DNA of 64,000 nucleotides from Klebsiella phage Sealy. The notes below the pieces were generated by a model that saw only the letters and a list, made by a program, of their open reading frames with translations, was not told the DNA's origin and made no database searches. The stretch is from sequence record PQ337358.1; one strand, 5' to 3'. Below, piece by piece: positions 9,730-10,392 of the stretch; position 1 is the stretch's first letter, and every line of letters starts with the position of its first letter. The position numbers and the translations under genes are program-made.

Positions 9730-10392
9730 TGTGCGAATCCGACAATGTGTCAAGCAAAATATTACGTGAGGCTGCTAGGGTATGTGCAAATCCGATGAAA
9801 ATTTATTTTTACCGCCCTGGGGGGCATTGTGCAAATCCGACACTAATATGTGCAAATCCGATAATAATTTTTAGGGGGAAGGCGCGCAGTTTGCTGCGGC
9901 GCAGCGGTGGGCGCGAGTCTGGGGGAGTATGTGCAAATCCGATGGGTATTTTTGAGGGTGAGATAAACGGGGTTGATTGGGGCAATTCGGGGTTGATTGG
10001 GGGCAGGGGGCAGATAATGGAAAATATTATGAGTTAAATGGGGGTAAAGGGGTTGACACAGAAAAAATTCCTGTGGCTCTAAAAAACAAGCGAACTCACG
10101 GTGACACACCGTGTAAAAAGGCTTGAAATTTCAGGAGATATTTTATATTCGCAGAATCGAAGATTTTGATCCACAGCTACCGTTCGTCAGAGATAATGTG
10201 CATTTCCGACAACCGTTTGAGTATGTGCAAATCCGACAATCTACTAGCTGTGTGCAAATTCGACCCTGTTTTTGTGTTCAGGAGTAATGTGCATTTCCGA
10301 CACAGCTAGAGTTTAGTGCAAATCCGACAGTTGCTAGAAACGTAGAAATGCTTGACTTCTTTAATATCTAGGAGCAATGTGCAAATCCGATA
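9730..10392. repeat. array of 11 copies of the 15-mer TGTGCAAATCCGACA and close variants
   Basis: copies at 9730, 9783, 9828, 9849, 9930, 10197, 10224, 10251, 10288, 10315, 10378; irregular spacing, same orientation. Confidence 0.8.

Follow-up and report, generated by a model that had tools for sequence, protein, structure and literature searches.

Direct repeat D of a Klebsiella T5-like phage: a conserved array of probable protein-binding sites flanking the right terminal-repeat end

The two-step transfer of T5 DNA and the origin of the 10-kb terminal repeats of this phage are old, unsolved problems. One repeat family of T5, "direct repeat D" (DRD), was reportedly first sequenced by Heusterspreute et al. 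in 1987, and the T5 GenBank record (AY587007) annotates nine copies of it (9672-10409), of which six belong to the left terminal repeat and three lie past its end. Davison lists DRD within "Repeat Region 3" of the injection-stop region (bioRxiv 10.1101/866236), and we found no paper assigning it a function in the literature that we searched. Here we analyzed a 64,000-nucleotide stretch of Klebsiella phage Sealy (PQ337358.1), hereafter the window, in which an array of a 15-mer had been noticed in an initial annotation. This array is, with near certainty, the Sugarlandvirus version of T5 DRD; it was already known as a sequence feature and was rediscovered here, so that the value of the analysis lies in comparative anatomy. 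What we add are the sharp limits of the site at 14-15 bp, its conservation across genera, and its division into two clusters around the end of the terminal repeat.

We scanned the window for TGTGCAAATCCGACA, allowing up to three mismatches and using 100 shuffled sequences as a control. The initial annotation had described eleven copies on one strand, and the scan returned the same number: 11 matches at 9730-10392, all on the plus strand and each with 0-2 mismatches, only two of them being exact (Table 1). Shuffled sequence gave a mean of 1.55 matches and a maximum of 6, with none of the 100 shuffles reaching 11. No further copy was found elsewhere in the 64-kb window, where the 13-bp core likewise gave nothing convincing, and a motif scan of IME260 from 63.5 to 113.4 kb returned a single 3-mismatch match that we took as chance. 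The copies form two clusters, five at 9730-9944 and six at 10197-10392. The irregular spacing of 20-90 bp that had been described therefore applies within the clusters, where start-to-start distances are 21-81 bp, but not across the gap between them, which measures 267 bp. The spacings (21, 27, 37, 45, 53, 63, and 81 bp) had no common helical phase, and the only open reading frames overlapping the array region are short and unsupported. To the right of the array, the relaxed core TGTGNAWNTYCG is also matched at 10433 and 10525 by two units of the 20-bp tandem repeats, a family that may consist of degenerate relatives of DRD.

Table 1. Features in and around the DRD array. Positions refer to the window, except in the last five rows, which give the starts of DRD copies relative to the end of the terminal repeat in each genome; ^ marks the cut.
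Feature	Position	Strand	Remarks
Two pairs of DnaA-box-like 9-mers	9477..9569	+	homologous to T5 IRD'-spacer-IRC' (Davison, 10.1101/866236)
Palindromic repeats, 35-bp period (AATGCGAATCATT...)	9602..9699		homologous to T5 direct repeat C / palindromes E-I
Possible weak twelfth copy	9696..9710	+	TTTGCATTTCCGACC, 4 mismatches
Nick-like CTGCGCTT	9721..9728	+	identical to T5 site annotated "major single-stranded nick 1, 7.9%"
DRD copy 1	9730..9744	+	TGTGCGAATCCGACA, 1 mismatch; directly after nick-like CTGCGCTT
DRD copy 2	9783..9797	+	TGTGCAAATCCGATG
DRD copy 3	9828..9842	+	exact
DRD copy 4	9849..9863	+	TGTGCAAATCCGATA
DRD copy 5	9930..9944	+	TGTGCAAATCCGATG; last inside terminal repeat, starts 149 bp before its end
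G-rich short repeats (CGGGGTTGATTGGGG x2, GGGGGCA x2)	9968..10013	+	in inter-cluster gap
Terminal-repeat end site TTGACA-N-CTGTGGCTC^TAAAA	10053..10079	+	by homology to terminal-repeat ends of relatives
Perfect 7-bp hairpin (CACGGTG aca CACCGTG)	10097..10113		18 bp past terminal-repeat end; read from sequence
DRD copy 6	10197..10211	+	TGTGCATTTCCGACA; first outside terminal repeat, starts 118 bp past its end
DRD copy 7	10224..10238	+	exact
DRD copy 8	10251..10265	+	TGTGCAAATTCGACC
DRD copy 9	10288..10302	+	TGTGCATTTCCGACA
DRD copy 10	10315..10329	+	AGTGCAAATCCGACA
DRD copy 11	10378..10392	+	TGTGCAAATCCGATA
20-bp tandem repeat family (TGTGGAACTTCGTG...)	10420..10556	+	tandem stretch 10498-10550
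Copy starts, window and IME260	inside -349 to -149; outside +118 to +299
Copy starts, T5	inside -467 to -258; outside +86 to +258
Copy starts, BF23	inside -466 to -258; outside +86, +121
Copy starts, phiR2-01	inside -466 to -257; outside +120
Copy starts, Slocum	inside -404 to -259; outside +124, +161

The identification with DRD draws on the motif, its surroundings, and the genome that carries it. The 15-mer pattern of the window recovers precisely the nine annotated T5 copies, and in both phages the copies share their strand and 15-bp consensus, occupy the right-hand, non-coding portion of the left terminal repeat, and continue across its end into unique DNA. Alignment and annotation indicate that the T5 order of elements is kept, namely DnaA-box inverted repeats, direct repeat C / palindromes, GCGC nick site, DRD, terminal-repeat end, and DRD again; the placement of the array between DnaA-box inverted repeats and 20-bp tandem repeats, proposed at the outset, was thereby upheld. 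The CTGCGCTT sequence that precedes copy 1 is a putative nick site by its identity with T5, where DRD copy 1 likewise stands beside "major nick 1, 7.9%". The genome is T5-like and has dmp, A1, and A2, its leftmost open reading frames including an A1 homologue 72-73% identical to T5-like A1 proteins. The array region is 87.6-93.7% identical to that of the 40 best-matching Klebsiella T5-like phages, and the relatives examined, Shiner and IME260, belong to the genus Sugarlandvirus of the Demerecviridae. The window differs from T5 in its host (Klebsiella) and genus, in having 5 + 6 rather than 6 + 3 copies, and in its spacings, cluster 2 being tighter (27-63 bp); it also lacks the isolated extra copy that T5-like phages carry ~1.9 kb to the right.

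We derived a motif profile from the 170 distinct copies at all loci, in which selection at up to three mismatches inflates the absolute bit values but not the sharpness of the edges. Information content ranged from 1.2 to 2.0 bits at positions 1-14 and was lowest at positions 6 and 14. Positions 1-5 and 7-13 carried 1.7-2.0 bits, save for 1.5-1.6 bits at positions 7 and 10, while positions 6 (A/G), 14 (C/T), and 15 carried less. The immediate flanks fell below 0.6 bits; a weak TA precedes the site, and a T-run follows at a distance of 5-7 nt. DRD is an asymmetric site sharply bounded at 14-15 bp. Its columns are 96% identical between the window and IME260, compared with 81-91% for the spacers, and 72% identical between the window and T5, compared with 34-37% for the spacers. 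Since these asymmetric sites are arranged head-to-tail at irregular spacing and at one locus, they suggest cooperative binding of a sequence-specific protein, and the DRD copies are probably conserved protein-binding sites that flank the right terminal-repeat end.

Whether the motif occurs in the injection-stop regions of related phages had been set beforehand as a test, and we found it in T5, BF23, phiR2-01, IME260, Slocum, and My1. The same consensus is thus shared by Tequintavirus, Epseptimavirus, Sugarlandvirus, Serratia phage Slocum, and Pectobacterium phage My1, and the A1 proteins of the genera that retain it are only 57-73% identical (57% in Slocum). Copy number varies by lineage (5+6, 6+3, 6+2 in phiR2-01 with one distant copy counted, 4+2, and at least 6 in My1), and orientation is uniform in all 67 loci compared. 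Among 2.9 million IMG/VR contigs, paired copies (8-38 nt apart) occurred in 43 stretches, all in T5-like contigs of 104-123 kb, while 596 Gb of bacterial and archaeal genomes yielded two small contigs of metagenome-assembled genomes only (2.6 and 3.0 kb). Proteus phage Stubb (Novosibvirus, A1 43% identical) has no DRD array; it retains DnaA boxes, the AGTGTTTCTCACT block, and a single degenerate copy after the CCCTGCGCC site.

The GGATTTGCA repeats of Stubb were considered as diverged DRDs and rejected because they share the 9-bp core only, in the opposite orientation and with other flanks; paired copies of this 9-mer are common by chance in IMG/VR. A search for more distant relatives through the anchor AGTGTTTCTCACTNCC likewise gave, outside complete T5-like genomes, new matches attributable to chance, two of them in apparent coding sequence. 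The record of Vibrio phage Chazly21 is circular and has no annotated repeat. T5-like phages of Escherichia, Salmonella, and Yersinia carry an additional isolated DRD ~1.9 kb to the right of the terminal-repeat end, in the same orientation and usually with 1 mismatch (occasionally 0-3), for which fewer than 0.01 chance occurrences are expected per genome. Examples are BF23 (OR083247, about 11653, in a minus-strand coding sequence), phiR2-01 (+1922), and many T5-like loci in IMG/VR.

The terminal repeat of the window probably ends at 10079 (...TTGACAcagaaaaaattcctgtggctc^taaaaaac), a position assigned by homology to five phages in which the end is reported or annotated: T5 (10139), BF23 (9743, PhageTerm), phiR2-01 (9901), Slocum (12521, PhageTerm), and IME260. 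The IME260 record (KX845404.2) annotates its terminal repeat as 1-10277 and is offset by 20 nt: it begins at the base equivalent to window position 21, and its right terminal repeat ends in ...cctgtggctc followed by 20 bases equal to window positions 1-20. This offset, which we corrected for, indicates that the start of the window is the left end of the genome and that the repeat ends at 10079. In all six genomes compared, the end falls on one homologous site within the inter-cluster gap (Table 1), in line with the earlier placement of the array at the terminal-repeat boundary and the limit of T5 first-step transfer. In the five phages, the start of the last inside copy lies 149-259 bp to the left of the end, and that of the first outside copy 86-124 bp to its right. 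The gap also holds G-rich short repeats and the conserved TTGACA, and a hairpin stands just past the cut across lineages with a lineage-specific sequence (GGGCC ttcg GGCCC at the equivalent place in T5, about 10156-10169, and BF23). Cluster 2 is single-copy, whereas the right repeat holds a second copy of cluster 1, which therefore lies within about 350 bp of the right terminus; as cluster 1 alone is inside the repeat, it also occupies 135-349 bp from the right end of virion DNA, as in IME260.

Some further observations concern the termini. The last 20 nt of the two annotated repeats of IME260 differ owing to the record offset. The hairpin lies ~15-20 bp beyond the terminal-repeat end in both lineages without its stem sequence being kept. 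In Stubb (NC_048086), the PhageTerm-predicted repeat end at 11415 lies on a CTGCGC site (11410-11415) homologous to the T5 7.9% nick, and a TTGACA...^TCAAAC site resembling the Slocum end is found ~765 bp farther right; judging from these sequences, the prediction may have picked up a nick instead of the end of the repeat. Finally, TCCAC occupies positions 3-7 at each T5 terminus when the sequence is read inward (AY587007 1-12, TGTCCACTG, on the left; 10129-10139, reverse complement GATCCACAG, on the right), which hints at a symmetric cut-site element, although this is unclear at the termini of the window.

Beyond a conserved protein-binding array at the terminal-repeat boundary, what the DRDs do is something that we can only infer. 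Our tentative choice, held with clearly less than even confidence, is that the array is a packaging platform that marks the terminal-repeat boundary for the terminase small subunit; that it is more specifically the cis-acting site, read by small terminase, that sets packaging polarity and fixes where the 10-kb repeat ends on the right is possible, and we put this forward with greater reserve. In such a scheme, a phage-encoded sequence-specific protein, most likely the terminase small subunit, would recognize the DRDs and mark the boundary on concatemers. Oligomeric small subunits on the head-to-tail sites flanking TTGACA...GTGG(A/C)TC^TAAAA would form a pac-like platform, and the large subunit would cut at the flanked site to create the right end of the genome. 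This right-end cut would also be the cut that initiates packaging, with the one-strand orientation of the sites setting its direction. T5 injects its left end first, and in lambda, SPP1, and T7 the DNA packaged last is injected first; by this rule, the right end of T5-like genomes would be packaged first and the right-end cut would be the initiating one.

Several aspects of the anatomy are consistent with packaging. Repeats flanking a terminase cut are the classical architecture of pac-type sites (P1 pac, SPP1 pacL/pacR, lambda cosB), and the DRDs adjoin the terminase cleavage site in T5, BF23, phiR2-01, Slocum, and IME260, and by homology in the window. Because cluster 2 is outside the repeat, replicated DNA and the left end are the only settings in which it stands beside the cut, an arrangement that fits packaging and does not fit injection. 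A small-terminase homologue is present in the lineage (phrog_3802, E = 3e-74). Packaging, which the initial annotation had listed last among its options, agrees with the anatomy no less well than the A2-like protein that it had placed first, and we slightly favor it. The Salmonella phage record NC_134262.1 names its small-terminase homologue a "putative SciB protein"; we presume that "sci" stands for the single-chain interruptions of T5, in which case the name would tie the packaging machinery to the nicks.

A number of points nevertheless weigh against a role in packaging. Recognition of DRDs by small terminase is putative, and the association in position could simply reflect a syntenic block that has been inherited. 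At 86-470 bp, the distance of the copies to the cut exceeds that at most characterized pac sites, and no DRD was found near the left terminal-repeat boundary. Stubb has a small-terminase homologue, A1, and A2, yet it does without the array. The isolated copy ~1.9 kb rightward in T5-like phages, which lies inside a gene, is not explained by a pac role. Moreover, the region has historically been assigned to the injection-stop signal, the 7.9% nick and shear point come shortly before the start of cluster 1, a position that suits injection equally well, and the direction of T5 packaging is itself deduced.

The DRDs could alternatively be bound by the pre-early protein A2, acting with A1 at the DNA entry point during the pause, in a complex that grips or processes the DNA and restarts second-step transfer. 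We regard this as a serious though doubtful possibility. In T5, the start of cluster 1 follows the 7.9% nick by 4 bp and the estimated 7.9% shear point (9618) by 54 bp, a layout that suits injection control, for which A2 is the natural candidate. The window likewise has its nick-like CTGCGCTT just before copy 1; if the shear estimate is right, however, the DRDs fall just outside the transferred DNA. Cluster 2, being past the terminal-repeat end, must still lie outside the cell during the pause and beyond the reach of a cytoplasmic protein; once the DNA has been replicated, both clusters can be reached. The first-step stop of T5 happens without phage protein synthesis, so A2 could act in the restart alone, and the earlier suggestion that a pre-early A2-like protein controls the injection stop was not sustained for the stop itself. 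A2 has been described as a purified DNA-binding dimer that is needed for second-step transfer (Davison, 10.1101/866236). No sequence specificity has been reported for it, however, and one would not obviously expect a symmetric dimer to recognize direct, asymmetric sites; in addition, Stubb has both A1 and A2 (39% identity) but no array.

The open reading frame at 4013-4417 on the minus strand, previously described as an A2-like protein with a SAP domain, is indeed an A2 homologue (66% identical to T5 A2; phrog_1725, "DNA binding protein"), but the SAP domain was not recovered in Pfam, PDB, or fold searches: no Pfam domain, SAP included, was found even at E<=10, and the sequence had no relative in the PDB. 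An AlphaFold model built from 22 homologues was confident, with a mean predicted local distance difference test (pLDDT) score of 85. It begins with a well-predicted helical bundle at the N terminus, followed by a linker (RKVGGGSS) that is basic and of low confidence and then by C-terminal helices. Foldseek gave no match in the PDB below E = 1; the faint, non-significant matches included three-helix DNA-binding domains of the Myb, Rap1, and CENP-B types, and Myb/homeodomain-like domains typically read asymmetric sites. The model is thus compatible with DNA binding and uninformative on DRD specificity. Conservation did not discriminate between the two candidate readers either, as both follow phylogeny: A2 of the window is 66% identical to that of T5, 43% to that of Slocum, and 39% to that of Stubb, and the small terminase is 62% identical to those of T5-like phages and 50% to that of Stubb.

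A host factor that binds the entering array and helps arrest transfer appears unlikely, including in a version in which the factor is DnaA and the DRDs serve as low-affinity boxes extending the high-affinity ones. A pause without phage protein synthesis suits a host factor, as does the occurrence of an identical motif in phages of Escherichia, Salmonella, Klebsiella, Serratia, Yersinia, and Pectobacterium. The reverse complement of DRD also holds ATTTGCACA, oriented like the neighboring DnaA boxes, but this best match meets only 8 of the 9 positions of TTWTNCACA, and G at position 6 breaks the invariant T4 of the box in 38 of the 170 copies; the initial statement that the 15-mer is not a DnaA box therefore stands for the canonical box. 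Furthermore, C11, G12, and A13, which are among the best-conserved DRD positions, fall outside any 9-bp DnaA box, the irregular spacings (17-81 bp) are unlike those of DnaA filament arrays, and Stubb has kept its DnaA boxes but not the DRD array. Paired copies were not found on bacterial chromosomes, and we know of no enterobacterial regulator consensus (CRP, IHF, Fis, LacI/GalR family) that DRD matches, which also counts against a host factor.

It is decidedly unlikely that the array is an iteron-type replication element, whether an origin or a priming or fork-control site for duplicating the terminal repeat. With its paired DnaA boxes and then 15-bp repeats in a single orientation, mostly with a T-run behind them, the region resembles iteron origins such as P1 oriR in layout. 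However, the repeats are shorter than typical iterons (17-22 bp), and the adjoining open reading frames match PHROG families of unknown function only, leaving no initiator-like neighbor gene. Classical electron microscopy placed the T5 origins near the genome center (as cited in Davison, 10.1101/866236), which also argues against an origin here.

We consider it very unlikely that the DRDs are a transcriptional operator or roadblock at which a phage regulator insulates pre-early from early transcription or controls a leftward promoter to the right of the array. The array does lie between rightward pre-early and leftward early genes, in a non-coding region of ~1.7 kb, and a consensus leftward sigma-70 promoter with a T5 counterpart is found at 10970-10942. 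Yet no convincing promoter overlaps any DRD, eleven sites over 660 bp are too many for an operator, and the motif is found at no other promoter in the genome. That the copies are functionless relics of local duplication, as their variable number among lineages might suggest, is the least probable reading of all, given that the sites have been kept while spacers were randomized across genera, with sharp motif boundaries and a uniform strand in 67 loci.

Other identities were considered and set aside. The initial annotation had discounted a CRISPR, and rightly so, as the repeats are 15 bp rather than 23-47 bp long and the gaps measure 6-66 bp within clusters and 252 bp between them. A search of 9000-11300 against Rfam gave two sub-threshold chance matches only, leaving no RNA element. 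No DRD lies on a good sigma-70 promoter, and TGTGCAAAT within the motif is a poor extended -10 element. A nick determinant was rejected because T5 nick 2 (CCCTGCGCTC) has no adjacent DRD and the DRDs of My1 have no GCGC directly before the first copy. The FtsK-orienting polar sequence (KOPS; GGGNAGGG) has a match, GGGCAGGG, near 10003 in the G-rich gap, which is lost in IME260 and T5 and was taken as chance.

The surroundings of the array contain further small elements. A perfect DnaA box, TGTGGATAA, is present at 9500-9508 among the paired 9-mers. AACCGCCCT occurs twice just to the right of the 20-bp repeats, at 10590-10598 and 10619-10627 (29 bp apart), and is akin to TACCGCCCT at 9812-9820; two copies of ATAACCGCCCT lie in cluster 2 of T5, and TATAACCGCCCT is found leftward of the TTGACA in Stubb. 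This is a second small conserved motif. The minus-strand sigma-70 promoter at 10970-10942 is perfect at 12 of 12 positions (TTGACA-17-TATAAT, with an upstream TG). It follows closely on the last leftward early gene, beyond the stop codon and the terminator of that gene, and points leftward into non-coding DNA, toward the array; an 11/12 counterpart occupies the equivalent relative place in T5 (AY587007 10771-10799). A non-coding transcript of ~290 nt could possibly run from this promoter to a terminator-like hairpin at 10668-10652, with a fold z-score of only -1.8.

DRD is among the best-conserved non-coding elements of T5-like phages and has been kept in at least five lineages. Being compact and mutable, with clusters that flank the mapped end of the terminal repeat, it offers a simple handle for separating packaging from injection signals, which is relevant to the engineering of T5-like phages, including Klebsiella phages now in therapeutic use. 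If the DRDs do serve packaging, the sequence long named an "injection-stop signal" would in part be a packaging signal.

Compared with known systems, the DRD array resembles the pac and cos sites (P1 pac hexamers, SPP1 pacL/pacR boxes, lambda cosB R sites) in that short repeats flank a defined cut at a single locus per genome; its distances to the cut are larger (86-470 bp), however, and terminase binding is only proposed here. T5-like genomes also differ from those with cos ends or headful packaging in having 10-kb direct terminal repeats. With respect to iteron origins (P1 oriR, pSC101, F), the likeness lies in DnaA boxes followed by same-orientation direct repeats, whereas the DRDs are shorter and have no adjacent initiator gene. 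DnaA-box arrays of the oriC type share a TGTG-N-A core with DRD, which also has a common orientation with its neighboring DnaA boxes, but DRD does not satisfy the 9-mer consensus, is conserved for 5-6 bp past the box, and is irregularly spaced. In T7, the short repeat arrays SRL and SRR flank the terminal repeat at the concatemer junction. The two systems thus have in common short direct-repeat arrays that flank a direct terminal repeat in a genome injected left end first; their sequences are unrelated, and while the T7 arrays flank a 160-bp repeat, the DRD clusters surround one boundary of a 10-kb repeat.

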